From Terriglobia bacterium (GTDB lineage: Bacteria; Acidobacteriota; Terriglobia; UBA7540), in contig DASYXW010000053.1 of NCBI GenBank assembly GCA_035934405.1, positions 59,938-83,937 on the forward strand: 24,000 bases of DNA, written 5' to 3'. Shown here in pieces: positions 336-24,000 of this stretch. The notes beneath the pieces were generated by a model that had not been told where the DNA came from, did no database searches, and worked only from the letters and a program-made list of their open reading frames with translations. Numbering within the stretch: position 1 is the first letter of the stretch; every line of letters starts with the position of its first letter. The translations under genes and the position numbers were made by a program.

Positions 336-992
336 CTACCTCGGGATGTAGCTCCCGAGCAAAGGAAGGATCTGGCCGGCGAAATCGGCCGCTCGCGCTT
401 GCCCGCTCGCGATCGCTTCGCCGTCACCGAGCGGGGTGATGACTCGGACGAGCGAGCCGTCCGTGCGGTTGAGCCGAATGGCGTCGGCGACGAGGTAGAA
501 CTTGGCTAGGTATTCGCTGGTCTCGGTGCGGCCGTGCGCCAAATACCAGTAAAGCGCCACCTGACGGTCCTGGCCCTTGGCAATCACGTAACGGTTCACC
601 GGGACATGCTCTCCGTCTGGCGCCTGAATCTGGATCACGTCGGACTCCTCGGGCACCCAGCCCGCGCCCGGCAGACAATGCTTGGGCGAATGAATCAAGT
701 CACCCGTCCGCTGGCTGGGGAAATAGGCGATGTAAAGGTCCAGATAGGCGCCGTCGGGGCGCTGGTAAATCCGCTCCATGAGGTCGCCGCCCGGCATGAG
801 ATCCCGCACCTCCTGCGTGATCGGCACCTGCTCCGCCTCGGTCCAGGCTCCCACTGAAGCCGGAAAAGAGTCCAGCGGCTGGCGCGGCATCTGTCTTTCA
901 GGCTGGGCGTGGGCGCGCAAGAAGGCGGCGGATATTCCAAGCAGGACGAGGACGGGAATGAATCGCGGCCACGATAAGGTTTGTTCTCGCAT
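336..992 (-). CDS. epsI: EpsI family exosortase-associated protein
   Basis: 218 aa with an N-terminal signal/anchor (FIPVLVLLGISAAFLRAHA). Contains the hallmark HSPKHCLPGAGW motif and YWY..G segment of the EpsI family. The start overlaps the stop of the upstream exosortase gene at 992. Confidence 0.85.
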   Translation of the reverse strand: MREQTLSWPRFIPVLVLLGISAAFLRAHAQPERQMPRQPLDSFPASVGAWTEAEQVPITQEVRDLMPGGDLMERIYQRPDGAYLDLYIAYFPSQRTGDLIHSPKHCLPGAGWVPEESDVIQIQAPDGEHVPVNRYVIAKGQDRQVALYWYLAHGRTETSEYLAKFYLVADAIRLNRTDGSLVRVITPLGDGEAIASGQARAADFAGQILPLLGSYIPR

Positions 993-1927: not shown

Positions 1928-2023
1928 CTAGCCTGTGTATCCATGATCACCCTTACCACCATACCACTCTCGGCCCGCCGAGAAAAAAGCAATAAAGCCG
2001 ATCCTTCGCCCGCCGCGGCGGAC

Positions 2024-4132
2024 TCAAGATGACACGCTGGGCGTGCGGGCGCGGATCGCCTTCACGCGGCCTTCCACCACCGCGGCTTCCGTCTCGCGGC
2101 GCATCTTGCGCAGCAGCTTGGCGTAGCGCTCGAGACACGGGGCAACCCCCGGATGCTCCGGCCCCAGGGCCCCTTCCAGGACTTGCAGAGCCTGCTTGAA
2201 GTACTGCTCTGCCCGGTCATATTGGCGCTGGGCGTCAGAGAGCACCGCCAGGTTGTTGAGGCTGGTTGCGAGCGATGGATGGCGAGGGCCAAGGTTTTCC
2301 TTCTTCACCTCCAGCGCCCTCTCGAACAGGCGGCCGGCTTCGGCGTACTGGCCTTCGGTGCTGTAGAGGGCCGCAAGATTGTTGAGGCTCTGAGCCACGC
2401 TGATGTGGCCCGGGCCCAGGGCGTTTTCCTGGATTTCGAGCGCCCGCCGCAGCAACCCCTCCGCCTCCGCCTGCCGGCCGGTTGAGCTGTAAATCGCCGC
2501 CAGGCTGTTCAGGCCGGAGGCCAGCACCGGGTGTTCCGGGCCGAGGACGTTCTCCTGAATCGCGAGAGCCCTCTGCCACAGTGTGACGGCGCGGTCGTTT
2601 TCTCCCAACGAGCGCGACAGTTGGGCCAGACGGCTGAGCGTGTGGGCTACGTCGGGGTGATCGGGTCCAAGTGCCCGCTCGAATGTGGCGAGCGCCCGCT
2701 CGGTAAGCTCTCGGGCCTCGGCGTACTTGCGCTGGGCGTCACAAAGCTGGGCAAGGTGGTTCAGATCTGCCGCCACCGCGACGTGTTCCGCCCCCAGATG
2801 TTGCGTATCCATTTCGACCACCCTGCGCTCGAATCCCTCGGCTTCGCCGTATTTCCCCTGGCTGCTCAAGACCTCCGCCAGACGCCCCAGCGTGGCCAAG
2901 ACACCGGAAAGGCCGGCGGGTTGCAGAGACTCCCGAATCGCCAGGGCGCGCTGGTAAACCGGCTCCGCCTCCGCGTACCGGTGTTCGAGCGAGTAGAGCA
3001 AGCCGAGTTTGTCGAGCAGCGGAAGCAGGTCAGGATGCTCTGGCCCGAGCCGCGCTTCATCGCTTTCGAGCGAACGGCGGAGTTGGGCCTCAGCTTCGCC
3101 GTTCCGCCGCGCCCGCCCGTTGTTCTTTTCCGGAGCCGGGCTCTCGGGAGCCTGTGTAAACCTTGAGGCTCCAACCGGAGACGACTCCGTGGCCCGATCC
3201 AACGTCCGATCCGGGGGGCCGTGCGGCGCCAGATGAGCGAGACGATTCAAGGCGGCTTTTACTTCGGCCGCCAGGACGGAAGGATTCGAGCTCTCAGCTT
3301 CTGGGGCTGCCGACGGGTCGTCGAGCGGGGCCAGGGCAGCGTTCGCGCTCGTCTCCGCTCGGGCCGCCATGGCCACGATGTCTTGCGCCCGGCGCAACAC
3401 GGCTCCAGCCTCGGCGTGCCTGCCCTCGCGGCGGTACAGCTCGCCAAGGTTCTCGAGAATCACGGCGACGTCGGGATGTCCAGGTCCGAGGATCTTCTCC
3501 TTGATCGCCAGCGCCTGCTTGAAGAAGGTCTCCGCTTCGGGAAACATCCCGTGGGCATAGGAGACGGTAGCCAGATTGTTGAAGCAGGTGGCGACGTGCG
3601 AGTGCTCGAAGCCAACGGCCTGGATCCACATCGTCAAAGCGCGTGAGAGCGTGTCGAGGGCTCTTGAATAATCGCCTTCCGCCTTGTACAGCAGCGCCAG
3701 GTTGTTGAGGCTGGTGGCGACGGACGGGTGCTCGCGCCCCAACGCATACTCCTCAATCTCCATCGCCCGGCGGAAGAGCGGCTCGGCTTCCGCCCACCGT
3801 CCTTGCGTCGAGCACAGCGCGCCGAGGTTATTGAGGGTCTGCGCCACGCTCGGATCGTCATGCCCGCAGACGCTTTCCCGAAGCTCCAGGGCGTGGCGGA
3901 AGAGGGGTTCGGCGTCCGCAAACTTGCCCTGGGAGCGGAAAGCCTCCCCGAGATCGTTCAAGCTGGCCGCAAAGCGCGTGTCCTCCGGCCCGAACCGCCG
4001 CGCTTCTTCCACCGCCGCCCGGTGATGTTTCTCGGCCTCGGCATAGCGGCCCTCGTTGTAGGCGCGGTTTCCCGCCTCGCTGTGCGCCTGCCACTCGGCT
4101 GGCTGCGGAATGTCGGTCTCGGTCACTCGCAA
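2024..4132 (-). CDS. tetratricopeptide repeat protein (kinesin-light-chain-type TPR_10/TPR_12 arrays)
   Basis: 702 aa. Contains many 42-residue units of the form AEPL..RAL.I.E..LGPEHP.VA..LNNLA.LY...G.Y.EAE. Two arrays are separated by a Pro/Ala/Ser-rich linker. No signal peptide. Confidence 0.85.
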   Translation of the reverse strand: MRVTETDIPQPAEWQAHSEAGNRAYNEGRYAEAEKHHRAAVEEARRFGPEDTRFAASLNDLGEAFRSQGKFADAEPLFRHALELRESVCGHDDPSVAQTLNNLGALCSTQGRWAEAEPLFRRAMEIEEYALGREHPSVATSLNNLALLYKAEGDYSRALDTLSRALTMWIQAVGFEHSHVATCFNNLATVSYAHGMFPEAETFFKQALAIKEKILGPGHPDVAVILENLGELYRREGRHAEAGAVLRRAQDIVAMAARAETSANAALAPLDDPSAAPEAESSNPSVLAAEVKAALNRLAHLAPHGPPDRTLDRATESSPVGASRFTQAPESPAPEKNNGRARRNGEAEAQLRRSLESDEARLGPEHPDLLPLLDKLGLLYSLEHRYAEAEPVYQRALAIRESLQPAGLSGVLATLGRLAEVLSSQGKYGEAEGFERRVVEMDTQHLGAEHVAVAADLNHLAQLCDAQRKYAEARELTERALATFERALGPDHPDVAHTLSRLAQLSRSLGENDRAVTLWQRALAIQENVLGPEHPVLASGLNSLAAIYSSTGRQAEAEGLLRRALEIQENALGPGHISVAQSLNNLAALYSTEGQYAEAGRLFERALEVKKENLGPRHPSLATSLNNLAVLSDAQRQYDRAEQYFKQALQVLEGALGPEHPGVAPCLERYAKLLRKMRRETEAAVVEGRVKAIRARTPSVSS

Positions 4133-4268
4133 CGCTCCAGAGCGAACGCGGGCTCGCTCGCCTCACCCCTACAACCTAATCCCAATTGTCGCAGAGTTCA
4201 ACTTGTTGGCGCCAACCGGCGGCAAGGCCGCTGGAAAACGCGCGGAAAAGCAAAAACGAGGGAAATAG

Positions 4269-4294
4269 CCCTCTCCCGCCGCGGCGGGAGAGGG
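4269..4294. repeat. perfect 26-bp GC-rich palindrome in a divergent intergenic region
   Basis: CCCTCTCCCGCCG/CGGCGGGAGAGGG. Each half is the exact reverse complement of the other. It lies between the TPR gene start (4132) and the tRNA. Confidence 0.6.
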
Positions 4295-4501
4295 TGGCCG
4301 GTAGGCCGGGTGAGGGGTCACGTTTCGAGTGTCGCGATCGGTCGTCCCTGCCTTCTTTCTAACGCGCATTGATGTCACCAGGCACAGCCAGCCTATGATG
4401 GCCAGCTTATTGTAGAAAGCCTGCGAGTTTTCGAGTACAATTTGTGAACGCTGCGGGTGCTGGCCGCGCTGTACTCGACTGGCTTCCTGCTGGCGGACCG
4501 C

Positions 4502-4594
<93 letters not shown>

Positions 4595-4609
4595 GCCAGT
4601 TCCCCCAAC

Positions 4610-4639
4610 CGGCCGCCGACCACCGATCGGCGACGGCCG
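4610..4639 (+). terminator. imperfect GC-rich hairpin just downstream of the tRNA (possible terminator)
   Basis: CGGCCGCCGA...TCGGCGACGGCCG inverted repeat. It is followed by a T-containing stretch holding a tandem TCTGTAATCT(T)GAA duplication (4651-4680). There is no clean U-tract. Confidence 0.3.
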
Positions 4640-4736
4640 TCGAGCCTGATTCTGTAATCTTGAATCTGTAATCTGAAATCCCGCCGCGCTCGCGTCACCC
4701 ACCCCGCAACCGACCACCGGTTTACCAGCTTGGCAC

Positions 4737-4764
4737 TTGACAGCGCCGCTTTCCGTGCTATACA
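4737..4764 (+). promoter_or_regulatory. candidate sigma70-type promoter for the 4816 gene
   Basis: TTGACA (4737-4742), a 16-nt spacer, then TATACA (4759-4764), about 50 nt upstream of the ATG at 4816. Confidence 0.4.
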
Positions 4765-4815
4765 TGATGGCACTCGCTAGGCGGTGGTTTCTTGCTGACA
4801 CGACGGAGGTGGACG

Positions 4816-7407
4816 ATGATGACGCGCCGGTTTACCGCGCTCTGCGCCCTAGCTGGAGTTGGTGCTCTCGCTCTCTACCTAACCTTCTCCACGCCGAGCC
4901 GCGCTCAGGCGCCGGACGGCCTTCCTACGCCAACGATTGACATCACCAAGTACGGCGCGAAGGCGGACGCTCAGATTCAAAGTTCCTGCTCCGTAAACAA
5001 GGCGGGGGTGGGCACGGTAAACGCCGTTTACGGTTGCACAACCACGATGCCGTTCACAACTGCCGACATCGGCAAGACCATCGAAATCGTCGGCGCAGGC
5101 TCTTCGGGGGCGACACTGGTGACGACGATCGTAGCTCTAATCAACGACGATACTGGAGCCGCATGCACCATGGCGACATGCGCGGCGGTCCAAATCTTCG
5201 CCACGCCACCCGCCAGCACGTCTGGATTGGTCGTCTGGGGTACGGACAACGGCCCGGCGCTAACGGCGGCTGGCAACGCCTGCCCTGCCCCATCGAGCGG
5301 GTCGATTCCCCTGCCTGGCCCGTTTACTTCCAGGGGCTGCGTCTTACTGGTACCGAGCCCCGGAAGCAACGGAACCTCTGACTACATGTTCGCAACCGGA
5401 GCCGTGCTTGCCACGCAGGATAGCTTCGAAATCCGGGGCATGGGCAATTCGGGCAAGCCCGAGGGGAGCATCAATTCAGAATCCGGTGTTCGGTTCATTA
5501 CGGCCGCGCAAATTACGATCCTGACTGTAGGACAGTTCAGTACCGCAGCAAACAATCTTGGCGGCTTTCAGATTAGCAACATCACCTTCAGAGATGTGAG
5601 TGGCAACGGCTCGGCGCTCGGCGGGCTGGACATGATCCAGATGAGCGAGGCCGTCGTCGCCTACTGCGATTTCGAAGGCTTCGACGGCTCGATTCCTGAC
5701 CCGGCAAACCCCAACGCCACATTTCCACTTCTTGCCTACGGCATGAAGAGCGATCCCGGAACTCAGACTAACGGCATGCAGGAGGTGGGCTTCACGAACA
5801 ACATCGTACTCCTCCACGACAAGGGCCAGGACAACGCAGTTTTCTATGACTCATCAAATCCTGACGCCGACGGCCCCATCGTTCTCGGGGGAGACATCTT
5901 TCCCACCGACAATCTGAACCACGTGGGCGTCACGTTTTCTTGCTATGGAATCATTAGCGGCGGAACCATTCGGATGTACGGCACGCATTTCGACGTGGGA
6001 AGCGACACGACGCTGACGCCCAACCTATGCACCGGCGTTAAGCTGCTTACCGGCGGCATTATCAGCGCCAAGTTCGAGTCTACGGCCGCCCACCCGGGCA
6101 ACGGCATCCTTCTTCAGGGCGGCAACTCCGCTCCAAACTCCCTGCCGATGAATACGGGTGTTGTGCGAACGACCGGCGGTGGCGCAAACTACGTTACGCT
6201 CGCATTTTCCTCGCCACCGAATCCAGCCTTTATGGCCGGACAGTTGGTGAGCGTCAGTTGCGCGAATTCAAGTGATTTCAGTTTCAACGGTGTATTTGTG
6301 GTAGCGAGCGTGAACACGGGCACCAACACACTCACCTACGATCAAGTCCCCGGGGCGGCGGGGGAGACCAACAACAGCCATGGAGGTTGTACCGCTACCG
6401 GCAGAGCGGCAAACTTGGCCAAAATTGACGCCAGCATGATTAAGCTTAACATCGGGCTTACCATTCAAACCCACGCCAACAACAATCAGGCGACACTTCT
6501 GAGTTCGCAAACAACCACACCTTACAGCGACTCCGGAACCGCGGACATTATCCAGCTCTTAGGCACCTCGGGCAGCCAGACCATCTTCAACTATGGCGCG
6601 GCTACCGGAGCTAATGTGAACATGTTTTCACTGGCCGACGCGGCCATGAATACCGGAACGGGTTCTCTGCTAAACATAGCCACTTCTACCTTGTCGAACG
6701 CCCTCCCGATCACGATTACTGCTCAAGGTAACGCGAACGGAGTACAAATGAGCACCACCGGTGTTCTAGCCAAATTCGGCGCGGGCAGCGTGAACGCGGA
6801 CCAATGCAACAGCACTACTTGCGGGACGGTAACCAGCGTCACGGGAACCGCGAATCAGATCGACATAGCTACGGGCACTACTACCCCAGCTCTATCACTC
6901 GACAGCAGCCTGCATATTCCGGGGACTGTTTCGCAAATTAATGGAATCGGTACCGTAGGTCCAAACGGAGTTGCCGTTCCGTTGACCAACACCCCGTCAG
7001 GCACCCTGCGGGCGGCGTTGGCTGCGACCACTCTGATTACCACTCCAAACAACGGAATCAACGGAGATTACAAGCTCGACATAACCATAGTCCAGGTCGA
7101 TGTCGGATCAGGTTGCACCGGCTCGGCAGTCGTAAAGGTAAATGTCGTTTATGACGATCCTTTTCCCGGCGTGACGCAACCGGCGACCCTCAACATTCCG
7201 CTGGCGACCGGCGGCGGAACCGTGGTTCCCGGGTTGACCCTGACGAACGGCACGCCAGCCCAGGTCAATCAAGGCTCAGGTAGTTGGAACATTACGGCAA
7301 AGCCAAACACTGCCATTCAGTACGCGACCGCATATACCAACTGCTCAGGGAGCCCTACCTCAGAACCTGGGTACAACATTACAGCGAAACTCAAGGCCGC
7401 GGACTAG
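4816..7407 (+). CDS. large secreted protein with a probable tailspike/pectate-lyase-3-like beta-helix N-terminal region
   Basis: The ORF track starts at TTG 4792. I prefer ATG 4816, which has GGAGG at 4805-4809. Signal peptide MMTRRFTALCALAGVGALALYLTFSTPSRAQA. DITKYGAKADA resembles the (N)V.DFGA.GDG opening of Pectate_lyase_3/tailspike domains. The body is Gly/Thr/Asn/Ser-rich and the C-terminal region is beta-rich. Confidence 0.7.
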   Translation: MMTRRFTALCALAGVGALALYLTFSTPSRAQAPDGLPTPTIDITKYGAKADAQIQSSCSVNKAGVGTVNAVYGCTTTMPFTTADIGKTIEIVGAGSSGATLVTTIVALINDDTGAACTMATCAAVQIFATPPASTSGLVVWGTDNGPALTAAGNACPAPSSGSIPLPGPFTSRGCVLLVPSPGSNGTSDYMFATGAVLATQDSFEIRGMGNSGKPEGSINSESGVRFITAAQITILTVGQFSTAANNLGGFQISNITFRDVSGNGSALGGLDMIQMSEAVVAYCDFEGFDGSIPDPANPNATFPLLAYGMKSDPGTQTNGMQEVGFTNNIVLLHDKGQDNAVFYDSSNPDADGPIVLGGDIFPTDNLNHVGVTFSCYGIISGGTIRMYGTHFDVGSDTTLTPNLCTGVKLLTGGIISAKFESTAAHPGNGILLQGGNSAPNSLPMNTGVVRTTGGGANYVTLAFSSPPNPAFMAGQLVSVSCANSSDFSFNGVFVVASVNTGTNTLTYDQVPGAAGETNNSHGGCTATGRAANLAKIDASMIKLNIGLTIQTHANNNQATLLSSQTTTPYSDSGTADIIQLLGTSGSQTIFNYGAATGANVNMFSLADAAMNTGTGSLLNIATSTLSNALPITITAQGNANGVQMSTTGVLAKFGAGSVNADQCNSTTCGTVTSVTGTANQIDIATGTTTPALSLDSSLHIPGTVSQINGIGTVGPNGVAVPLTNTPSGTLRAALAATTLITTPNNGINGDYKLDITIVQVDVGSGCTGSAVVKVNVVYDDPFPGVTQPATLNIPLATGGGTVVPGLTLTNGTPAQVNQGSGSWNITAKPNTAIQYATAYTNCSGSPTSEPGYNITAKLKAAD

Positions 7408-7472
7408 CGAACAGACTGTTTTGGGAGCAATAAGCTCATTCAACACGAACAATCGAAGAGGAGAATAACAAC

Positions 7473-9575
7473 ATGAGAAATAAAAAGGAGCGACTGAGTC
7501 TCGGAATCATTCTCGCGGTGATGGCGTCGATGGGCAGTCTAGGAAGAAGCCTCCAAGCGCAGACGAACGCGGTGCCTTTCGTCAACCAGCCGCTCGTGCC
7601 GGAAGCGGCGGTGCCGGGCGGAGCCGGGTTCACTCTGACCGTGAACGGCACCGGGTTCGTTGCCGGGTCCATCGTGAACTGGAAAGGCAGCCCGCGCGCC
7701 ACCACCTTTGTTTCGAATTCACAATTGACGGCCGCGATTCTCGCTTCAGACATTTCCGTCCCTGGGACGGCTTCGGTTACGGTGACCAGTCCGGCGCCGG
7801 GCGGCGGAACTTCGAACGGCGCTTATTTCCAGGTTACCTCTCCGGTGTCCCCCGTACTCTTAAACAGCACCGACTACGCGACGGGTCAAAGTCCGTACTC
7901 CGTAGCGGTGGCTGATTTCAACGGCGACGGGAAACCGGACCTCGTGGTGTCAGACGTGACCCCGAGCACGGTCTCGGTGTTCCTCGGAAATGGTGATGGA
8001 ACGTTCCAGCCCCATGTGGATTATCCCGTGGCCTCGCTTCCTGACCAGTTGATCGTGGCTGATTTCAATGGCGACGGTAAGCCCGACCTTGCTGTGACCA
8101 ACGGTGACTGCGCGACGATCCCTTGTGAGCTCGCAGCGGTTTCCATTTTGCTCGGCAACGGCGACGGCACATTTCAAGCTCATAAGGAGTACGCAACCGC
8201 ATACTCGGAATACGCTATCGCCGCCGGCGACTTCAACGGCGACGGGAAGCTCGACCTGGCGGTGACAACGACTTGCGGGAGCGATTCTACTTGCGCGAAC
8301 TTGACGGGCGCTGTCTCCATCTTGCTTGGAAATGGAGACGGAACGTTCGGCGCGCATACGGATTATCCCAGCCCCGCCCTTGAAGTCCCTGGCGCCGTCG
8401 TGGTGGGCGACTTCAACCGCGATGGAAAGCTGGACATGGCAGTAGGGATGTTTTGCCCTACCTGCTTCCCGCCAGAGAATGGATCGGTTTCCGTCTTCCT
8501 CGGAAACGGTGACGGGACTTTCCAGCCCGCAGTCAGCTATGGGCTCAATAGTGGTGGTGGCCTGACAATGGTGGCAGCGGACTTCAACGGCGATGGCATT
8601 CTTGACCTGGTCGTTGGAGACTCCTACGTTTCGCTTCTCCAAGGCAACGGGGACGGCACCTTCCGCGCGCCGGTTGATTACCCCGCCCTCGGTCCGCCCA
8701 GCGCCCTGGCGGTCGGCGATTTCAACGGAGACGGCAAACTCGACGTTGCCGCTGCTGCGTCGAATTTCGGAATCACCGGAGTTTCCCTTCTCTACGGAAA
8801 TGGAAACGGGACTTTTCAAACCCATGTTGATTTTCCCGCCAGCGAATTCGCATCCTCGCTCGCCGCGGGAGACTTCAACGCGGACGGTAACCTCGACCTC
8901 GTGACAGCGAATGAGAATGACAATACCCTCTCGGTGCTCTCGCAAGCTGTGGGGCCGGTGGTGGCGCTGTCGCCAGCCAGTCTCACCTTTCCAACCCAAA
9001 TCGAGGGAACGATGAGCGCGCTTAAGAATTCCACGCTCACCAACACCGGTAACACCAGCCTGAGCATTTCGAGTCTGTCTGCGAGCAGTAGTTTTGGCCA
9101 GAAGAACACCTGCGGTGGCAGCGTGGCGGTGGGCGCGAGTTGTACGATTAGCGTGTCCTTTGATCCGAAGACCAAGGGCACGCTTACCGGAAATGTCAGC
9201 ATTGCCGACAACGCGCCGGGCAGTCCCCAAACTATCTCTCTTACCGGCACCGGCACAGCGGTGAAGCTTTCACCCACCTTCCTTGAATTTGGCAGCGTCA
9301 AGGTGGGCACGACGAGCGCCCCACAGACCATCACGCTGACCAACGTCGCCCCCAATAGCGCCCTGAGTATCGGCCGTATTGCGCTTACGGGCCAAAACCC
9401 CGGCCAATTTGCCCAGACCAACACCTGCGGGTCAAGCGTGCCTCCCGGCGGGAGTTGCACGTTCAGCGTGACGTTTACTCCCACGAAAAAAGGGAGCAAG
9501 CTCGCAGATTTATATATCTACGACAACGGCGGCGCTAGTCCGCAGATCGTGAACCTGAGCGGAGTGGGAACGTAA
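7473..9575 (+). CDS. secreted IPT/TIG + FG-GAP/VCBS repeat + choice-of-anchor-D (HYDIN-like) domain protein
   Basis: GAGGAG SD and a signal peptide. N-terminal [10 protein letters not shown]...SQLTA...VTV segment (IPT-like). About 8 repeats of [10 protein letters not shown]......VSV(L)LGNGDGTF. Two C-terminal LTN.G...L.I......F....CG..V..G.SC...V.F.P modules. Confidence 0.85.
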
Positions 9576-9661
9576 GAAAGCAGTGGCTAGTGGCTAGGGG
9601 TTATCGGTTAGGAGCTCGGTAGGCGACAGGACGGTAGGCAGGAGGCAGGTTCAAACGGCGC
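9576..9661 (+). repeat. conserved G-rich 3' element (copy 1) directly after the stop codon
   Basis: AAGAAAGCAGTGGCTAGTGGCTAGGGGTTA...GGTAGGCGACAGGACGGTAGGCAGGAGGCAGGTTCAAACGGCGC. It aligns with 12353-12449. Confidence 0.7.
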
Positions 9662-9692
9662 GATAGCCTATGATTCGGCGGCTAACAACCCG

Positions 9693-17948: not shown

Positions 17949-19310
17949 CACAGCATCTTTCGTGGCGTTTACGATAGCCGTGCTCGCGAAGGATGGCTCC
18001 TTTTTCAGGCGTAGGCGAGTCGCCGCCGCGGTCTGAGTAGTCACTGGCGCTGATTTAATGAGTGCTTCGGCGATCAATTCGACCAGATAGGTGTTTACAC
18101 CGTTGCCTAGTGCTTTGAAAGCCTGTGTTGGAACCGCTGGCAAATGCTTAAGTTCGTCCATACACTGCAGTCGAGCGCACTCCCGAACCGTCATATAGCG
18201 CCTTTCCCACGCTATGATCGGCACCTGCGTAGTCGTCATCGCGATTAGCGACGGCGCCGTCGTTGGTCGCTTCACGCGCACGCCGGACGCGCGGAATTGA
18301 ATGACGTATTTCCAGATATTCCGCTCCTCACCCTTGCAATTCCATTCGAATTTTTGAAGGCTGGGAGGGAACTGTACGATCTCCGGCAACCACCGGTCGA
18401 TCCATTCTTTGTTCTCGCAATAAAGGTTACGGTTCTGCCTTATGAACGTCCGCTTCCATGTTGGAAACCGCTTCTCTGGCGTGCGCGCGTGCGATGGAAG
18501 CGCGCCTAGGACCTTGTATCGAGCATAGCACTTGAGAGACTCGCCATGGGATCCGCGATATTTGAAGAGATCCCGGCGCGGCGTTGCCCACGGAGTCGTA
18601 TCCTCGTACGGATAGGTCGCGCCGAACTCCATCGACCAGATCGGAAACGAAGGCAACTCGATGTTGGCTGGGTATTTCTCGATGAACTTCTGCCATACGT
18701 CCAAACACTTCAGAACCGCAGGCGTCAGCCTTCTGGCATCCTTTGGATTATGGTCAAGCGCTGAGCTCAGATTTGGCTCCGCACCCTCCGGCGGCACCGG
18801 CCACCTGAAATTGCCCAAACCGTCACGGCTCCCCACGATGAACATTCGCTCGCGAATCTGCGGGATGCCAAATTGATGAGGCGACAGGTACGCGAATGCG
18901 ACCGCGTAACCCGCATTTTGGAATTGCCGCTCAAGATCCTCCCATGTCTCACCGCCGTTGTGCCGCTTGAGATTCGGGACGTTTTCCAAAAGGATGAAGC
19001 GCGGTTTACGCGCTCGCGCTATCCGTAGCATATGACCTAGAAGGTTGCCCCACTTCGGACACTCTACCCCCTGCTGCTCGCCAGCCTTCGAGAACGGTTG
19101 GCAGGGCGAGCCCGCACACAAAATGTCGTGATCCGGTACCTCGCAGATCGGCACCGAAAGAATGTCGCCCGCCGGGCGTATCCCGTAGTTTGCCTCGTAC
19201 AGTTCTCGCAGAGTCGTGTCAATCTCACTCGCGAAGACACAATTGTTGCCCAGGCGCTTCAGCGCAAGGTGAAATCCTCCGAGCCCAGCAAACAAGTCTA
19301 TGAAGCGCAT
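17931..19310 (-). CDS. dcm: DNA (cytosine-5)-methyltransferase
   Basis: 459 aa. Motif I DLFAGLGGF, motif IV GSPCQPFS, motif VI LLENVPNL, motif VIII QIRERMFIVG, motif X ALGNGVN. A long variable region lies between VIII and X. Confidence 0.9.
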   Translation of the reverse strand: MRFIDLFAGLGGFHLALKRLGNNCVFASEIDTTLRELYEANYGIRPAGDILSVPICEVPDHDILCAGSPCQPFSKAGEQQGVECPKWGNLLGHMLRIARARKPRFILLENVPNLKRHNGGETWEDLERQFQNAGYAVAFAYLSPHQFGIPQIRERMFIVGSRDGLGNFRWPVPPEGAEPNLSSALDHNPKDARRLTPAVLKCLDVWQKFIEKYPANIELPSFPIWSMEFGATYPYEDTTPWATPRRDLFKYRGSHGESLKCYARYKVLGALPSHARTPEKRFPTWKRTFIRQNRNLYCENKEWIDRWLPEIVQFPPSLQKFEWNCKGEERNIWKYVIQFRASGVRVKRPTTAPSLIAMTTTQVPIIAWERRYMTVRECARLQCMDELKHLPAVPTQAFKALGNGVNTYLVELIAEALIKSAPVTTQTAAATRLRLKKEPSFASTAIVNATKDAVSLVEW

Positions 19311-19762
19311 CGCCTGCTGTTCCGCCGACGCAACAGGACGTTCTCGACTTGGGTCGCCGCACGCTCCGGGTCCGCTTTAATGTCACCTTCCCAAAGCCGC
19401 ATCACGCACCAGTGCTGTTTTTTTAGCAGGCGGGTCGTCTGGCGGTCCCGCAGCATATTCGCTCGAATCTTCCTCCGCCAATAGCCCGCGTTCGCCCCCT
19501 TTTGGAGGTGCTTCGAGAGCCGATGCCAACGCCGGCCATGCCAGAAATCCCCGTCACAAAAAACAGCCACCCGCCCCCTCGCGAAAACAACGTCCGGCTT
19601 GCCGGGAAGCCCGGCCAGATTCTTGCGAAATCGCAGTCCGCGCCGCCACAGCGCGCTTCGAAGAAGCCTCTCGTGCATGGTGTCGGCGCTGCGGTTCATC
19701 CGCTTTGCCAACGATGCGGCCTGCGAGGTCGCCTTCAGTCCGATGTATGAAGGGGTCTTCAT
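19298..19762 (-). CDS. vsr: very short patch repair endonuclease
   Basis: LPGKPDVVF...AVFCDGDFWHG...W..K signature. The ORF track begins at GTG 19780. I prefer ATG 19762, which is preceded by AAGGGA. The 3' end overlaps the dcm start by 13 nt. Confidence 0.85.
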   Translation of the reverse strand: MKTPSYIGLKATSQAASLAKRMNRSADTMHERLLRSALWRRGLRFRKNLAGLPGKPDVVFARGRVAVFCDGDFWHGRRWHRLSKHLQKGANAGYWRRKIRANMLRDRQTTRLLKKQHWCVMRLWEGDIKADPERAATQVENVLLRRRNSRRCAS

Positions 19763-19865
19763 CACGGAATCCCTTTTCACAGCCTGACCGGGGGTCAGTA
19801 TACGCCTGGGGAGTAGCGCTCGTCGAGATGGCAGATACTTGACCCTGCTGGCACCGAGCGCCGAT

Positions 19866-20120
19866 CGCGCCCTGAACTACCTCGCGGTGCGCTATCACGC
19901 CATCTATGCCAACGCCGCCGAAGCCTTTGCGCGCAATGCGTCGCTGACCGGCGTGTATGTGGTTCCGTCGTCTTTGAGCGGCACGCGCAAGGTGGCCGAT
20001 GTGATTTTCTCTTACACCAACCGCTCGACCGATGTGGTGGAGAAGTTTTTTACGCGCGTGGACGTGACCGAGGAGTTTCCATTCCTGGTCACGAAGCTGT
20101 CGCCGTACTACGACCGTTAA
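19866..20120 (+). pseudogene. 5'-truncated paralogous copy of the last 84 codons of the PatG-DUF-like gene (22541-23470)
   Basis: 255 nt align without gaps to 23216-23470 with 13 differences by my count. The encoded 84 aa are identical. An in-frame stop lies at 19815-19817, and weaker similarity extends back to about 19820. Confidence 0.7.
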
Positions 20121-20148
20121 ACTACGGAAGTGGCAGGAGGTCATTCCA

Positions 20149-20343
20149 ATGCGTTTAGCCGAATTCACCGCCGACGCTTCGCTCTCTGAGGGCAGCGAGG
20201 AGTATGCCATGAGGGCGTCACCTGCCTCGACGGCCGGGGCTACGGGTTTGGTGTTGCCGGCCATCGAACATTGCTGGGGTAGGTTATGCGTATGGTGCGC
20301 CTGGAATCATGGTCGTGACTGCGGGATCAAATGGAAGTTTTAA
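20149..20343 (+). CDS. precursor-like small peptide (64 aa), third member of the family at 23505/23746
   Basis: GGAGG SD 8 nt upstream. MRLAEFTADASLSEGSEEY shares F6, A8, D/E9, L12 and Y19 with the other two peptides. LVLPA hinge, then the tail IEHCWGRLCVWCAWNHGRDCGIKWKF (4 Cys, 4 Trp). Confidence 0.55.
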   Translation: MRLAEFTADASLSEGSEEYAMRASPASTAGATGLVLPAIEHCWGRLCVWCAWNHGRDCGIKWKF

Positions 20344-20527: not shown

Positions 20528-20645
20528 TAACCCAAACCCTTGGTAGTGAGTGTTTGCCTTTGTAGCGGCGAGTTTATCTCGGTCGCCGCGGCGACCGGCA
20601 TAAAGCCGCCTCTACGCGAAACTGACCCACCACCAAACCCTGCGG

Positions 20646-21011
20646 TTGAGAGACGCTTGCTACGGAGCTGACGGCGGTGCTAGCCTTCATGCGCCAGTGC
20701 ATTTTCTCACCGATTTCGAGGGCCGACCCATTCGCCTCACCGACGAGCGCTGGCGCCATATTTGTGAACACCCAGAAATGGGTGACATGCGGGATTCCTT
20801 GGATGAAACCCTGCGACTGCCGGATGTTGTTGTCGAGTCCGTCGGCGATCCAGACGCGTGGCTTTACTACCGCTTCTACCATCGAACGCTTGTCGGAGGA
20901 AAGTACCTGGGTGTAGTGGTAAAATTCCCGAAGGCTGATGCGTTTGTGGTGACTGCTTATGTCACCGACCGGGTGAAGAAAGGCAACGTCCTATGGCCGA
21001 GAGAATCGTGA
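20646..21011 (+). CDS. small toxin-like protein (DUF4258-like by memory)
   Basis: IRLTDERWRHICEHPEM...LPDVVVES..DP...YYRFY...GKYLGVVVKF...AFVVTAYVT pattern. The start is uncertain (TTG 20646 or GTG 20697). It overlaps the next gene by 19 nt. Confidence 0.5.
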   Translation: MRDACYGADGGASLHAPVHFLTDFEGRPIRLTDERWRHICEHPEMGDMRDSLDETLRLPDVVVESVGDPDAWLYYRFYHRTLVGGKYLGVVVKFPKADAFVVTAYVTDRVKKGNVLWPRES

Positions 21012-21196
21012 AGATGTGGTTCGATCCCGAAGCCGACTTTCTCGAAGTCACCTTCGAGCAAAAGCCGGGATATTTCCGCGAGACCGAGAACGACCTCGTG
21101 ATGGAAAAGGTTGACACCCAGGGGAACGTGATCGGATTTTCCGTGCTGCGCGTCAGCTCCTTGAAAAAGACTCCGCTCGAAGTTGCGCTCCGGTAA
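20993..21196 (+). CDS. DUF2283-family small protein (antitoxin-like partner)
   Basis: 67 aa. WFDPEADFLEVTF....G........V.EKVDTQGNVIGFSVL matches the YD.EAD.LYI......vD.d..G.vvGiEiL pattern of DUF2283. Confidence 0.6.
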   Translation: MAERIVKMWFDPEADFLEVTFEQKPGYFRETENDLVMEKVDTQGNVIGFSVLRVSSLKKTPLEVALR

Positions 21197-21354: not shown

Positions 21355-22251
21355 GTGAGCCCTCTGGATCTGGTCCACCTCTCACCCTTGATGGAGCGCA
21401 CGCAGGGTCGCGCTGAGCTCATCGTCGCTTTGATTGATGGGCCTGTGGCGCTCGACCATCCTGACCTCGCCGGCGCGACTGTCCGTCATGTTGGCGGCGA
21501 ACTTCCTGGAAAACTGAAAGGAGCCTGTAGCCTGGCCCAGAGCGTGGCGTGCACGCACGGCACGTTTGTGGCCGGCGTACTTTTTGCGCGGCGGGGTTCC
21601 GAGGCGCCGGCCATTTGTCCGGCGTGCACGCTGTTGCTGCGGCCAATCTTCGCGGAAACGGCGAGCAAGAACGGAGACATGCCGAGCGCGACTCCGGTAG
21701 AACTGGCCCAAGCCATTATCGAAAGCGTTGATGCGGGCGCGCGCGTCATCAACTTGAGTTCCGCCCTGGTTCAACCTTCACTGAAAGGTGAAAGAGAGAT
21801 GGAGGAGGCGCTCAACCACGCAGCGCAGCGCGGCGCCATCACGGTGGCGGCGGCGGGCAATCAGGGAACGGTGGGAAGTTCCATCATCACGCGCCATTCC
21901 TGGGTGATTCCGGTGGCCGCCTGCAATCCTCAGGGCAAACCGCTCCGCGAATCGAATCTCGGAAGCTCGATCGGCCGGCGGGGACTGAGCGCGCCGGGGG
22001 AGAACGTTACCAGCCTCGGAACCAACGGCAAGCCGCAGACTTTTGGCGGCACCAGCGCGGCGGCGCCTTTTGTGACCGGCGCGATTGCGCTCCTCTGGTC
22101 GGAGTTTCCAGGCGCCAGCGCAGGCGAGATTAAACTGGCCGTGACGCAAGCCGGTATACCACGGCGGCCCACCGTCGCTCCGCCCGTGCTCGACGCCTGG
22201 GCCGCTTATCAGGTGATGGCCTCCGCCCATAACGGGAGAAGAGTGGCATGA
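21355..22251 (+). CDS. S8 family subtilisin-like serine protease, PatA/PatG-like branch
   Basis: 298 aa, GTG start. Catalytic elements appear in canonical order: Asp in LIVALIDGPVALDHPDL, His in ACTHGTFVAGVL, Asn in AAAGNQG, Ser in GGTSAAAPFVTGAIALLW. No signal peptide. Confidence 0.85.
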   Translation: MSPLDLVHLSPLMERTQGRAELIVALIDGPVALDHPDLAGATVRHVGGELPGKLKGACSLAQSVACTHGTFVAGVLFARRGSEAPAICPACTLLLRPIFAETASKNGDMPSATPVELAQAIIESVDAGARVINLSSALVQPSLKGEREMEEALNHAAQRGAITVAAAGNQGTVGSSIITRHSWVIPVAACNPQGKPLRESNLGSSIGRRGLSAPGENVTSLGTNGKPQTFGGTSAAAPFVTGAIALLWSEFPGASAGEIKLAVTQAGIPRRPTVAPPVLDAWAAYQVMASAHNGRRVA

Positions 22252-22454
22252 GCAGAAAAGAAAGCAGCAAGAATCACGGCGGCGAACCCGAGCATCAGCC
22301 GCACCGCGTTCGTCTTCCGGGGTTCCTCATCGAGGAGGAAATCGGACTCGGAGATACCGTCAAGAAAATAACCTACGCCATGGGATTCAAGCCGTGCGGC
22401 GGATGTGAGAAGCGCGCCGCGGCGCTCAACCGGTGGATGAGTTTTACGCGATAG
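22248..22454 (+). CDS. small CxxC protein (68 aa)
   Basis: ATGA overlap with the protease stop. The GLGDTVKKITYAMGFKPCGGCEKRAAALNRW motif is one I recall as a widespread small domain of unknown function. It also carries RLPGFLIEEE. Confidence 0.6.
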   Translation: MSRKESSKNHGGEPEHQPHRVRLPGFLIEEEIGLGDTVKKITYAMGFKPCGGCEKRAAALNRWMSFTR

Positions 22455-22540
22455 CCTGGCTGTAGCGCCGCTCTATGAGCGGCGAAGGACGCCGGTCGCA
22501 GACCGGCGTTACAAATCAATCCTTTAGGAGGCGAAATCAC

Positions 22541-23470
22541 ATGGAGCAACAGGAAGCGAACGAGCAATTGGCAACTGCATCTGTCAGCGGGAATGACGCC
22601 GCGGCGATAGCGGCCTCTGCCGCGAGGCCGGCGGCATCGCTGGCGCCGCAGGCGTGTCCGACTTGCGGCACGGCGCCGGCAGCGAATGGCGGAGCCGCCG
22701 CGCCCAGCTACGTCTATGCCATCGGCAGAATTGAACCCCGCTTCCCGCGGCCGTCGGTGGAAAAGGAATTCGCCCAGGCCGTGGGGCGGGACAAGACTTC
22801 CGGCCTTACCGACCGCCAGGCGCTGCATGCGGTGCTTTCGAAGCCCGAAAATCGTTATCTCGTGCGGCACTTGTGCTGGGTGATGACGATTGAGGGCCTC
22901 GAAACCTACATCCTGGTCCCGCGTGACCCGGCGGATTTCAATCTTCTGGTCGAAGCGCTCCGTCCTACGCCGCAACCCTGGGACCTGGATTGCGTCATCG
23001 GGTTTCGCGGACCCATCGCCGGGCCGGAAGTGTGCAACGGGCTGATGGTGCCGATTGTGGCGTTTGACCAAATCTATTCCTTCGACCGCGATTCGCTGAT
23101 CAAAGCCATTCCCAAACCCGAGAAGACCACGGCCAAGGACTTTGCTCCGGCGGCGGAGGAACTGTTCGACCGCATCATGCAGATGACGGATAACGCCGGC
23201 GCGACCGATGAGAACCGCGCTTTGAATTACCTGGCGGTGCGCTATCACGCCATCTATGCCAACGCCGCCGAAGCCTTTGCGCGCAATGCCTCGCTGACCG
23301 GCGTGTATGTGGTCCCGTCGTCTTTGAGCGGCACGCGCAAGGTGGCCGATGTGATTTTCTCTTACACCAACCGCTCGACCGATGTGGTGGAGAAGTTCTT
23401 TACGCGCGTCGATGTGACCGAGGAGTTTCCGTTCCTGGTGACGAAGCTGTCGCCGTACTACGACCGCTGA
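22541..23470 (+). CDS. free-standing protein resembling the PatA/PatG C-terminal domain of unknown function
   Basis: The ORF track starts at 22475. I prefer ATG 22541, which has AGGAGG at 22526-22531. It contains CPTCG followed by SYVYAIGRIEPRFPRPSVEKEFAQAVG, which resembles from memory the YVYALG..GYDFG.EARRD opening of the PatG C-terminal domain. Confidence 0.7.
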   Translation: MEQQEANEQLATASVSGNDAAAIAASAARPAASLAPQACPTCGTAPAANGGAAAPSYVYAIGRIEPRFPRPSVEKEFAQAVGRDKTSGLTDRQALHAVLSKPENRYLVRHLCWVMTIEGLETYILVPRDPADFNLLVEALRPTPQPWDLDCVIGFRGPIAGPEVCNGLMVPIVAFDQIYSFDRDSLIKAIPKPEKTTAKDFAPAAEELFDRIMQMTDNAGATDENRALNYLAVRYHAIYANAAEAFARNASLTGVYVVPSSLSGTRKVADVIFSYTNRSTDVVEKFFTRVDVTEEFPFLVTKLSPYYDR

Positions 23471-23504
23471 AATTCGAGGAATATGGGATCAAAGGAGGTC
23501 ACAC

Positions 23505-23705
23505 ATGAGTCTCCCAGGGTTTGTTGCTGATGTTTCGCTAGCTGGCTCGCGGAGTCCTTATCAGGCGGGCGCAGAGCATGACAATTTGGCTGCCGGCGCA
23601 AAGGTTGTGCCCCAACTTTTCTATATCTCCGTAGGCCCAGGCCGCTGCGCTGTGGGCGAGTATGCCGGTGGCGCGTGCTGGTTCTACGGGATCGTGAGCT
23701 GCTAG
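23505..23705 (+). CDS. precursor-like small peptide (66 aa)
   Basis: AAGGAGG SD. MSLPGFVADVSLAGSRSPY leader-like motif and VVPQ hinge. Tail LFYISVGPGRCAVGEYAGGACWFYGIVSC (3 Cys). Confidence 0.6.
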   Translation: MSLPGFVADVSLAGSRSPYQAGAEHDNLAAGAKVVPQLFYISVGPGRCAVGEYAGGACWFYGIVSC

Positions 23706-23745
23706 ATGATTTTGAAAGCACACATCAGACGTAAAGGAGAAAAAG

Positions 23746-24000
23746 ATGAGCACACCAGGATTCACCGCCGAGGCTGCGCTCGGCAAAATGAGGGAAAGCT
23801 ACGCTCTCACCTCGGGGATCGCAGCAGAGACCGGGAGCGTTCTGCCCCAACAATGGGGGATATTACAGAACTTACAGGTCTGCCGAACCGTTTGTTTTTC
23901 AGTTCCTGGTTCCCTCGGCCCTAAGGTCGTTTGTGACACGCTCTGTCCGCCTGGGGTCGGGCATTCTCACAGAGGCGCCCAGAGCTACACGGCTTACTGA
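23746..24000 (+). CDS. precursor-like small peptide (84 aa), complete; the stop is the last codon of the window
   Basis: AAGGAG SD. MSTPGFTAEAALGKMRESY leader-like motif and VLPQ hinge. Tail QWGILQNLQVCRTVCFSVPGSLGPKVVCDTLCPPGVGHSHRGAQSYTAY (4 Cys). Confidence 0.6.
   Translation: MSTPGFTAEAALGKMRESYALTSGIAAETGSVLPQQWGILQNLQVCRTVCFSVPGSLGPKVVCDTLCPPGVGHSHRGAQSYTAY

Follow-up and report, generated by a model that had tools for sequence, protein, structure and literature searches.

The leader-removing enzyme of the cyanobactin pathway, PatA/PagA, joins an N-terminal S8 leader protease to a C-terminal DUF. The structure of a PatG-type DUF was reportedly solved in 2014, and its role in cyanobactin biosynthesis is said to have stayed undefined since. 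The function of the PatA/PatG DUF is described as still open, and the PatG DUF showed no binding of PatE′ in ITC or NMR (PMC4259220); in 2025 work the domain was treated merely as a structural reference (PMC12639078). The cut site of PatA is G(L/V)E(A/P)S (PMC10885120).

Outside the cyanobactins, a conserved leader, unrelated cores, many precursor genes and a machinery that reads the leader only are combined in the prochlorosin-type, NHLP and Nif11-leader systems. Conotoxin- and defensin-type precursors have a conserved N-terminal region that is removed by a subtilisin-family protease, followed by a hypervariable mature part with even numbers of Cys, and in polymorphic toxin loci (CDI cdiA-CT/cdiI, Rhs) displaced orphan cassettes stand behind a 3′ remnant of the conserved upstream gene. 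All these traits recur, or are predicted, in the module analysed here, the likeness to conotoxins and defensins being one of analogy, not homology.

Here, we investigated a gene module in a 24,000-nt stretch of DNA (the window) from a soil bacterium. Neither the literature nor the family libraries searched contained a description of it, in keeping with an earlier note on this DNA that could assign the gene combination to no named RiPP class; the system is unnamed but widespread. On our best reading, it is PatA-like in its working, yet not a cyanobactin pathway. We consider it fairly probable that the module is a self-contained, horizontally mobile system for the leader-guided maturation of hypervariable Cys-rich precursor peptides and proteins into disulfide-rich products or toxins.

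Results

Five co-directional genes at positions 21355–24000, all on the forward strand and all present as the earlier note had described them, encode an S8 protease, a CxxC protein, a DUF protein and two leader-bearing small ORFs. Gene content was read up to position 24000, where the window ends, and within the window the module is surrounded by restriction-modification genes and a DUF2283 gene. The order of S8 gene, CxxC gene, DUF gene and precursor array is fixed and recurs in 81 of 85 compared loci (S8 in 79, CxxC in 76, leader ORFs in 81); the loci are related to each other, so that their counts are not independent events. These loci span Acidobacteriota, Chloroflexota, nitrifiers, anammox bacteria, cyanobacteria and others. 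The same organisation is found in eight further metagenome loci and beside fused S8–DUF genes. At least 351 species-level genomes, drawn from many phyla, carry the system, cultured carriers being for example Edaphobacter modestus DSM 18101 and Nitrosospira sp. Nl5; its components are annotated as ‘hypothetical’ or ‘S8 peptidase’ alone and many precursors are not called as genes.

The protease (21355–22251, 298 aa), a predicted leader peptidase, matches Pfam PF00082 Peptidase_S8 at 88.8 bits (cutoff 21.8; E = 5e-25) and thus belongs to the S8 family. Its catalytic set, which the earlier note took to be intact, is indeed complete, with D28, H68, N169 (the oxyanion Asn) and S234 located in IDGPV, HGT, GNQG and GTSAA motifs. 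The best PDB matches are the PatA/PagA structures 4h6w, 4h6v and 3zxx (1e-28 to 1e-30, catalytic residues aligned), whereas the values for subtilisins lie between 1e-11 and 1e-16 and that for the PatG macrocyclase is 1e-12, as against 1e-30 for PatA. The suspicion that the enzyme stands nearer to the PatA/PatG branch than to subtilisins was therefore well founded; judged by homology, the protease is PatA-type, related to the cyanobactin leader-removing enzyme PatA, which is also its closest solved relative. Unlike PatA, it has family-specific cysteines (C58, C66 and C88-P-A-C91) around the catalytic His, and it is separate from the DUF, with an additional conserved CxxC mini-protein encoded in between. 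Because close relatives (~55–59% identity) have protease and DUF fused in one polypeptide, as PatA does, the architecture is accurately labelled a split PatA, as had been proposed.

The CxxC mini-protein (22248–22454, 68 aa; ...HRVRLPGF..EIGLGD...KPCGGCEKRAAALNRW...) overlaps the protease stop codon through ATGA, so that the two genes are translationally coupled, an arrangement already recognised in the earlier note. A 4-nt overlap of the S8 and CxxC genes is found in 37 of 73 loci, and in all 76 loci with a CxxC gene the latter occupies the interval between the S8 and DUF genes. In locus L073 the CxxC protein is fused to S8, and the CxxC gene also adjoins fused S8–DUF genes. The family has 22 invariant positions and counts 1883 homologues, none of which bears a name or a Pfam domain. 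A likeness of its RLPGF string to the leaders described below scored no better than shuffled sequences in a profile test.

The DUF protein starts at the ATG at 22541, preceded by AGGAGG, and is 309 aa long (22541–23470). The earlier note had likened it to the C-terminal DUF of PatA/PatG and proposed profile searches as the check, and the match turned out to be strong: PF18047 PatG_D at 114 bits (cutoff 27; 6e-33) and PF18065 PatG_C at 115.7 bits (cutoff 25.9; 1.5e-33). The family profile also matches 4uvq among PDB entries (8.6e-12), which is the sole significant Foldseek match of the AF2 model (pLDDT 86.9) as well (E = 1.5e-14, TM 0.68/0.78). The two DUFs are homologous, yet identity with the PatG DUF is 19%. 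A disordered N-terminal stretch of 55 residues, with CPTC at aa 39–42, precedes a two-lobed alpha/beta fold. We retrieved at least 8000 homologues (1657 clusters at 50% identity), and among relatives there are fusions of the DUF to S8, JmjC and TIR domains; the JmjC–DUF locus L092 also has an S8 gene and a precursor with the same leader. Hydrophobic, signal and transmembrane segments were found in none of the S8, CxxC and DUF proteins, all three of which look cytoplasmic and soluble.

Two small ORFs, both with a strong Shine-Dalgarno sequence and a common N-terminal motif, had been noted downstream of the DUF gene. The ribosome-binding sites and the motif proved real, but the window holds three such precursors, not two. 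Precursor B (23505–23705, 66 aa; leader profile 38.5 bits, E = 1.7e-9) begins 34 nt past the DUF stop codon with AAAGGAGG upstream, and consists of a predicted leader (23505–23615, MSLPGFVADVSL...KVVPQ) and a core with 3 Cys (23616–23702, LFYISVGPGRCAVGEYAGGACWFYGIVSC). Precursor C (23746–24000, 84 aa; 51.5 bits, E = 1.4e-13) has AAAGGAG upstream and a stop codon that ends on the last base of the window; its leader (23746–23850, MSTPGFTAEAAL...SVLPQ) is followed by a 49-aa core with 4 Cys (23851–23997). Precursor A (20149–20343, 64 aa; 40 bits, E = 5.5e-10), unannotated in the source record, sits upstream of the module, with GGAGG before its ATG, a leader at 20149–20262 (MRLAEFTADASL...LVLPA) and a core with 4 Cys at 20263–20340 (IEHCWGRLCVWCAWNHGRDCGIKWKF). 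All three are absent from the protein collection and were thus probably never called as genes.

The leader profile detects 263 ORFs in the 81 leader-bearing loci, 247 of which follow the DUF gene directly and in the same orientation, and the first precursor of a compared locus usually starts 20–35 nt past the DUF stop codon; at least 1000 leader peptides were retrieved, with several genes per locus and several loci per genome. Such recurrence indicates that the motif common to the small ORFs is not due to chance, and protease/DUF pairs in other genomes do have adjacent motif-bearing ORFs, as expected of a co-occurring family. The leader, of ~37 aa, comprises a [MIL]PGFTAEASLY box (P 97%, F 97% and A 96% conserved), a conserved Tyr seven residues on and, past a variable linker, a G-x-V-x-P-(Q/A) site (V/I 90%, P 75%, Q/A 90%). 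The predicted site has the P4-hydrophobic, P2-Pro/Ala logic of the PatA site (PMC10885120). The N-terminal box is not accounted for by the cut site alone. Differing from the leaders of prochlorosin-type, NHLP and Nif11 systems, this family has no Pfam or NCBIfam match and ends in P-Q or P-A, not Gly-Gly, and LanM, radical-SAM enzymes and C39-peptidase ABC exporters are missing from the module; the class II bacteriocin arrangement, a double-glycine leader with a PCAT exporter, does not apply either, the leaders ending in V-x-P-Q/A and no transporter family being conserved near the module in the 85 loci.

What follows the leader is hypervariable. Of 231 cores, 228 are unique, and their median pairwise identity (0.30) hardly differs from that of shuffled cores (0.29), compared with 0.38 versus 0.22 for the leaders. 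Cores are rich in Cys and Gly, Cys making up 12.3% of core residues but 0.4% of leader residues, and the number of Cys is even in 220 of 228 cores; precursor B, with its odd count, is an exception. The proportion falls to 191 of 228 for full-length peptides, and even counts are found in 64% of control small ORFs; the parity rule thus begins exactly at the predicted cut. Such abundant Cys and Gly, together with the CxxC motifs of the S8, CxxC and DUF proteins and the lack of a conserved exporter, could be taken to mean that the cores stay in the cytoplasm and serve metal binding or redox buffering, like metallothioneins or bufferins, with the CxxC motifs of the trio handling metal. This we regard as very improbable, since strict even parity (2, 4, 6, 8, 10...) from the cut site onwards is what disulfides predict, not metal clusters, the cores have no common Cys spacing pattern, and the PLA2-like cargo described below does not fit.

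A PatA-like protease and a PatG-type DUF, in a window that stops at 24000, also bring to mind an ordinary cyanobactin pathway, making N-to-C macrocyclic, heterocyclised or prenylated peptides with the help of genes past the window end. The compared loci, with flanks of up to 6–10 kb, leave this next to no credibility. Each module has one S8 gene, and neither a second S8 or PatG-type macrocyclase nor the YcaO heterocyclase PatD, the prenyltransferase PatF or an oxidase recurs in the 85 loci; PatD, PatF and the oxidase are absent from the window ORFs scanned, too. More broadly, no further gene family, be it exporter, membrane protein, heterocyclase or macrocyclase, recurs in the flanks, in agreement with the earlier remark that no tailoring enzyme or exporter is visible, and in this lack of a dedicated exporter the module and cyanobactin systems are alike. 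The peptides were said to be unlike PatE, and Pfam and NCBIfam precursor models, PatE included, give no match to the window precursors at E up to 1. The precursors have no conserved C-terminal recognition residues and, in contrast to PatE, no RSII/RSIII-type flanking recognition around short cores; their long, Cys-rich substrate regions (27–84 aa, 4–8 Cys) do not resemble cyanobactin cores, and no visible enzyme would cyclise them. Moreover, the curated PatA/PatG model TIGR03895 scores the protease at 108.5 bits and the DUF protein at 34.8 bits, against a cutoff of 421.

While most cores measure 27–84 aa, long cargos reach ~440 aa of core, and the cargo as a whole ranges from 25-aa peptides to 478-aa Stig1-like or PLA2-like proteins (Stig1-like match, 57 bits; PLA2-like match, 27 bits and thus below the cutoff, with the motifs YGxWCGxGxGG and HDxCY). 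Stig1-like and PLA2-like domains are typical of secreted, disulfide-rich proteins, and in appearance the cargo is closer to secreted peptides and proteins rich in disulfides than to heavily modified RiPPs. One might accordingly see in the leader, which lies at the extreme N-terminus, a non-classical sorting or export signal, and in the S8, CxxC and DUF proteins the processing components of a pathway that secretes Cys-rich proteins, comparable to exosortase/signal-peptidase systems, with the translocon encoded elsewhere. Cargo of up to 478 aa with extracellular-type domains is devoid of a Sec-type hydrophobic signal, and even Cys counts imply an oxidising destination. We nevertheless hold this to be unlikely: the leaders are hydrophilic, and all but one lack any hydrophobic run of more than five residues, the trio is free of hydrophobic segments, no membrane protein is conserved nearby in the 85 loci, and multi-copy hypervariable arrays with remnants suit the diversification of toxins better than housekeeping secretion.

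The remnants point to how the arrays may change. Precursor A stands behind a 93-aa ORF (19839–20120, forward strand) that retains only the PatG_C part of the DUF (8e-26), its ATG lying 28 nt after the stop codon of this remnant. The repeat at 19866–20126 duplicates, over 261 nt and with 94% identity (blastn, 251 nt at 95.6%), the 3′-terminal part of the DUF gene (23216–23476). Of the compared loci, 29 contain such remnants, 34 in total, and 28 of the 34 have a leader ORF in the next 400 nt. As in CDI and Rhs loci, remnants in front of displaced cassettes imply replacement by homologous recombination; unlike there, the candidate toxin is a separate small gene, not the C-terminus of a large delivery protein, and neither paired immunity genes nor a delivery apparatus were recognised. 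No immunity gene was evident between the precursor genes, and none stood out in gene-family clustering of the 85 loci. The flanks differ entirely from locus to locus, and on the genomic evidence the module is mobile and very widespread.

The restriction-modification and DUF2283 neighbours in the window and the toxin–antitoxin genes and transposases that surround the module in loci L001 and L003 would also suit a conflict or defence module, in which intracellular pro-toxins are activated by the protease upon infection or stress and the DUF and CxxC proteins act as sensors. Toxins activated by proteases are an established principle of defence, and TIR/SEFIR–DUF fusions exist in the family. Several observations make this decidedly unlikely: PADLOC 2.0 matches the protease with a generic subtilase model only and has no match for the DUF or CxxC proteins, no relatives were found on viral contigs, a reducing cytoplasm would hardly suit cores with paired Cys or cargo of the PLA2 and Stig1 types, and abortive-infection systems do not usually have so large and hypervariable a set of effectors.

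Discussion

Leader-guided maturation, the reading that we prefer, would proceed as follows. The N-terminal leader box would dock on either or both of the DUF and CxxC proteins, keeping the precursor on the protease complex, and the protease would cut after V-x-P-(Q/A) by the same logic as PatA. All Cys of the released cores would be paired in disulfides, and the products may act extracellularly as bacteriocin- or toxin-like agents. Given that no transporter is conserved and the trio looks cytoplasmic, disulfide-rich products would need an export route from elsewhere. New precursor cassettes would enter by recombination at the 3′ terminus of the DUF gene, displacing older ones. In contrast to conotoxin and defensin precursors, the system is bacterial, has no Sec signal and encodes a dedicated protease and its partners in an operon.

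More tentatively, and with less confidence than the maturation model as such, we suggest that the PatG-type DUF is the leader-docking or assembly domain of an ancient, widespread maturation platform, which acts with the CxxC mini-protein and the Cys4-decorated protease to bring PGFTAEASLY-type leaders to interchangeable catalytic partners (S8 protease, JmjC hydroxylase, TIR). The docking idea is weakened by the failure of the PatG DUF to bind PatE′ (PMC4259220). The CxxC motifs, in turn, might couple leader removal to the oxidative folding or export of disulfide-rich cargo.

Since the DUF here stands alone as a protein, and both a candidate ligand, the strongly conserved leader box, and a partner are defined, it offers a handle on the function of the PatA/PatG DUF, and binding and reconstitution experiments are straightforward. 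The module probably yields libraries of disulfide-rich secreted peptides or toxins: its hypervariable, even-Cys cores represent a natural library of probably disulfide-constrained peptides, processed by a leader-directed and apparently promiscuous protease, and are relevant to antimicrobial discovery and peptide engineering, while the cassette remnants reveal the recombination-driven turnover of such libraries. If the DUF-docking platform holds true, soil Acidobacteriota and nitrifiers would harbour bacterial ‘conotoxin-like’ peptides in very large numbers, a library as yet untapped.

Results

The ORF listing bore out the five co-directional, closely spaced genes that an earlier note had described at 21355-24000. 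The first encodes a 298-aa S8 protease (21355-22251; Pfam Peptidase_S8, 5e-25) with D28, H68, N169 and S234 within canonical motifs, and its stop codon is overlapped, as ATGA, by the ATG of the gene for a 68-aa CxxC protein (22248-22454). The 309-aa DUF protein, identical to one database entry from a Terriglobia MAG, has its true start at ATG 22541, with AGGAGG seven bases upstream, and is followed by precursors B (23505-23705) and C (23746-24000), each preceded by a strong Shine-Dalgarno sequence. The ORF of precursor C terminates on the window's last base, and related loci served in place of contig sequence past the window end (24000). Both small ORFs claimed in the note are thus present, yet there are three rather than two, because a further precursor, A (20149-20343), which shares the leader motif and has four Cys in its core, lies 28 nt past the stop of an ORF that is a remnant of the DUF gene. 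Precursors A, B and C are missing from the protein collection searched, so gene calling probably missed them. No hydrophobic segment was found in the S8, CxxC or DUF proteins or in the precursors, and a promoter and terminator scan of the window gave no signal above shuffled expectation. The window's own CxxC protein was located on Logan contigs only, of ~2-2.7 kb each, and an exact 42-nt search of metagenome contigs returned no match.

The solved structures nearest to the protease are the PagA/PatA N-terminal cyanobactin proteases (4h6w, 4h6v and 3zxx/3zxy; 1e-28 to 1e-30); thermitase and subtilisins (1e-11 to 1e-16) and the PatG macrocyclase domain (1e-12) come well behind. It is thus a PatA-type enzyme without the macrocyclase insert, in agreement with the earlier reading, which had placed it closer to the PatA/PatG branch than to housekeeping subtilisins and had considered 298 aa apparently too short for that insert. 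The curated PatA/PatG model, which covers protease plus DUF, scores the protease at 108 bits and thus below its cutoff of 421. Members of this family share a set of four cysteines, not present in the PatA structures, that flank the catalytic His (C58, C66 and C88-P-A-C91 in the window, 21526-21627): C-x5-9-C stands immediately before this His in 74 of 75 family proteases, and CPxC follows ~20 residues past it in 71 of 75. Each of the three proteins carries a CxxC motif (CPAC at C88/C91 of the protease, CGGC at C50/C53 of the mini-protein and CPTC at C39/C42 of the DUF tail), and a Zn site or a redox relay could be built from the cysteines.

The assignment of the 309-aa protein to the PatA/PatG DUF was confirmed by matches to PatG_D (6e-33) and PatG_C (1.5e-33). 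A phmmer search of the PDB with the single sequence found no true match; a profile of 57 family members matched the PatG DUF structure 4uvq (8.6e-12). The same structure is the only significant Foldseek neighbour (E 1.5e-14, TM 0.68/0.78, 19% identity) of the AlphaFold model (pLDDT 86.9), in which residues 1-55 form a disordered tail. The DUF protein has at least 8000 homologues in a set of 5.8 billion proteins, and its family spans 1657 clusters at 50% identity. Among the best 150 cluster representatives, 16 are long proteins (~560-730 aa), ~43-59% identical to the window DUF, that contain the DUF as their C-terminal part; 14 of them resemble PatA in having an S8 protease fused ahead of it. 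Two loci with such fused genes, L093 and L094, retain a stand-alone CxxC gene as well as ORFs with the leader. In other relatives, the DUF is fused to a JmjC/cupin domain (P0208 and P0220) or to a TIR/SEFIR domain (P0145 and P0258). The JmjC-DUF gene of locus L092 (2502-4634) is accompanied by a precursor with the same leader (~1513-1980), an S8 gene and a sulfotransferase-like gene. A metagenome scan for the TIR-DUF context recovered ordinary S8-CxxC-DUF modules, matched via the DUF part alone.

Small ORFs with the shared motif accompany homologous protease/DUF pairs, as the earlier note had implied: a leader profile, seeded from a regular expression and applied with heuristic ORF starts and cut position, identified 263 ORFs in 81 of the 85 compared loci, with 1 to 9 in each. 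Nearly all (247/263) share the strand of the DUF gene and come after it, and the gap between the DUF stop codon and the first of them is typically 20-35 nt. The leader, with a median length of 37 aa, opens with the box [MIL]-P(97%)-G(76%)-F(97%)-T-A(96%)-E(83%)-A-S(80%)-L(77%)-Y, which is followed seven residues later by a Tyr (74%) and then by ~14 variable residues, and ends with G-x-[V/I](90%)-x-P(75%)-[Q/A](90%). The cores (median 46 aa) are almost all different, 228 of 231 being unique, and random core pairs are no more alike than shuffled ones (0.30 vs 0.29), whereas leaders are (0.38 vs 0.22). Cysteine accounts for 12.3% of residues in the cores and 0.4% in the leaders, and its count is even in 220 of the 228 cores (binomial tail 4e-55 against 0.5), compared with 64% of control small ORFs with at least two Cys. 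In the window, where the predicted cut would follow VLPA in A, VVPQ in B and VLPQ in C, the cores of A and C contain four cysteines each and that of B three, which places B among the exceptions. Since the count is even in only 191 of 228 full-length peptides, the parity rule starts at the predicted cleavage site; it thus independently supports both the predicted cut position and a likely disulfide pairing of the mature part.

Larger cargo proteins (140-478 aa, up to 75 Cys) also bear the leader, some with Stig1-like repeats (Pfam 57 bits). Those at L014 (9173-10609), L044 (6988-8238) and similar loci are 200-478 aa long with Stig1-like repeats of the form D-P-N-N-C-G-x-C-G, and hence the leader is not limited to small peptides. 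The cargo of L093 (3154-3633) displays the phospholipase A2 signatures YGRWCGPGHGG (Ca-loop) and CMMHDLCY (catalytic His-Asp), with a Pfam PLA2_1 score of 27 bits, under the cutoff of 32. At least 1064 leader peptides are present in the protein database, every one unnamed.

The remnant upstream of precursor A is part of a direct repeat (19866-20126; 261 nt at 94% identity, or 251 nt at 95.6%) that copies the last 87 codons of the DUF gene, and the ORF at this position matches PatG_C (8e-26). Precursor arrays repeatedly contain copies of the DUF gene's final 30-130 nt, with 34 cases in 29 loci at 69-99% identity, and a leader ORF lies within 400 nt after 28 of the 34. Downstream of the fused-type module of L093, a CxxC gene is grouped with a PatG_C remnant and a precursor. 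These DUF-end copies bear the signature of recombinational replacement at the DUF 3′ end, like that of orphan cassettes in polymorphic toxin loci. The window remnant is unusually long and recent, and lies upstream of the module beside a Vsr/Dcm pair and a DUF2283 gene; an older module was probably split here by rearrangement or island insertion.

The 68-aa CxxC protein has no match in Pfam, NCBIfam or PADLOC, the last of which reported nothing specific for the module as a whole. Its ~1900 homologues, each ~68 aa and every one unnamed, share 22 invariant positions (...HRVRLPGF..E.GLGD...A.G...C.GC..RA..LN.W..F), and its AF2 model, poor when predicted alone (pLDDT 58), is a helix-loop-helix with the CxxC within the loop. 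A 4-nt overlap joins the S8 and CxxC genes in 37 of 73 loci, and in 29 more the two lie within 25 nt of each other. At L073 (3938-5002), one 354-aa ORF matches both proteins and may represent a natural fusion or a frameshifted assembly. The invariant RLPGF...E (window 22311-22325) is similar to the opening of the leader box, [MIL]-P-G-F-T-A-E. Leader mimicry by the CxxC protein was rejected as evidence, since its score with the leader profile does not exceed that of shuffled sequences; the likeness, which may be coincidence, is therefore kept as an observation only.

A scan of one genome per species yielded 351 loci, the best 80 of which are 65-88% identical. They belong to Acidobacteriota (the majority), Nitrolancea (Chloroflexota), Nitrosospira, Nitrotoga and Ca. 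Brocadia, as well as Verrucomicrobiota, Spirochaetia, Entotheonellaceae, Alphaproteobacteria and two cyanobacteria, and some genomes hold two or three copies. Cultured carriers include Edaphobacter modestus DSM 18101 (L072), Acidobacteriaceae bacterium KBS 96 (L066), Nitrosospira sp. Nl5 (L065) and Nitrolancea hollandica Lb (L034). Among 85 loci including the window, which are mutually related so that counts do not represent independent events, 79 carry the S8 protease and 76 the CxxC protein, and the order S8, CxxC, DUF on one strand is kept wherever these genes are present. A variant order is seen at L090 (8001-10841), where the DUF is followed by a leader ORF (~9110-9457), S8 (9430-10341) and a second leader ORF, with a cupin_8 gene nearby on the opposite strand. 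Clustering of flanking ORFs in the 85 loci revealed no other family common to more than a handful of them, save shadow ORFs and precursor subfamilies, and no transporter conserved with the module; cyanobactin clusters are likewise not known to contain one. The annotated flanks differ each time (kinases, sugar metabolism, toxin-antitoxin genes, transposases), which, together with the lack of a shared flanking family, indicates that the module is self-contained and mobile. It is not phage-borne, the viral contigs searched containing no relatives.

Between precursor A and the protease, the window contains two overlapping small ORFs (20646-21196) that look toxin-antitoxin-like; the one at 20993-21196 matches DUF2283, and the one at 20646-21011 has no Pfam match. 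Four short Logan contigs (L085-L088) carry the same DUF2283 gene upstream of the protease. An imperfect 28-nt palindrome (20562-20615, 82% complementary) is found in the spacer that follows precursor A. On the other side, 86 nt from the remnant, ends a block (15907-19780) that comprises minus-strand genes for a Vsr-like very-short-patch endonuclease (19298-19780) and, overlapping it, a C-5 cytosine DNA methyltransferase (17931-19310), and, beside these, two plus-strand ORFs without a Pfam match (15907-17013 and 17013-17948), possibly a restriction component. The left part of the window (336-12352) is unrelated to the module: it encodes a DUF3485/EpsI-like protein (336-992), exosortase EpsH (992-1927) and a large TPR protein (2024-4132), all on the minus strand, and a pair of paralogous FG-GAP/ASH-domain proteins (7473-9575 and 10253-12352). 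The only hit of Rfam and tRNA scans across the window was tRNA-Ser(GCT) at 4502-4594, a possible boundary of a genomic island that takes in the module.

Discussion

The S8, JmjC and TIR architectural variants indicate that the DUF stays constant beside the leader family and that it is the catalytic domain which changes. From these domain arrangements, the simplest inference is that the DUF would serve for docking or as an adaptor. Counting against a docking role, neither the unmodified nor the heterocyclised form of PatE′ was bound by the PatG DUF (PMC4259220); PatE, however, is without the leader box found here.

With its homologous parts, the module would work like the PatA step of cyanobactin biosynthesis. 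It differs from that pathway in lacking its defining features, namely a macrocyclase, a PatE-type precursor, and a heterocyclase or prenyltransferase, and in scoring under the cutoff of the curated model. It shares the 'one machinery, many cores' logic with prochlorosin- and NHLP-type systems, its substrate design with conotoxin precursors and its genome dynamics with CDI/Rhs orphan arrays. We found no name or description of it in four family libraries or in the literature covered, namely papers open without subscription.

In order of decreasing confidence, we propose the following mechanism. The S8 protease would cut the leader off after V-x-P-(Q/A), a site that resembles the G(L/V)E(A/P)S cleavage site of PatA (PMC10885120) in its hydrophobic P4 and its Pro at P2. 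The mature cores, with all cysteines in disulfides, would act outside the cytoplasm, presumably as diversifying antimicrobial or toxin-like agents. The N-terminal leader box may dock on either or both of the DUF and CxxC proteins, and the CxxC motifs of the three proteins may bind Zn at interfaces or constitute a disulfide relay. If real, the fusion at L073 suggests physical contact between the protease and the CxxC protein.
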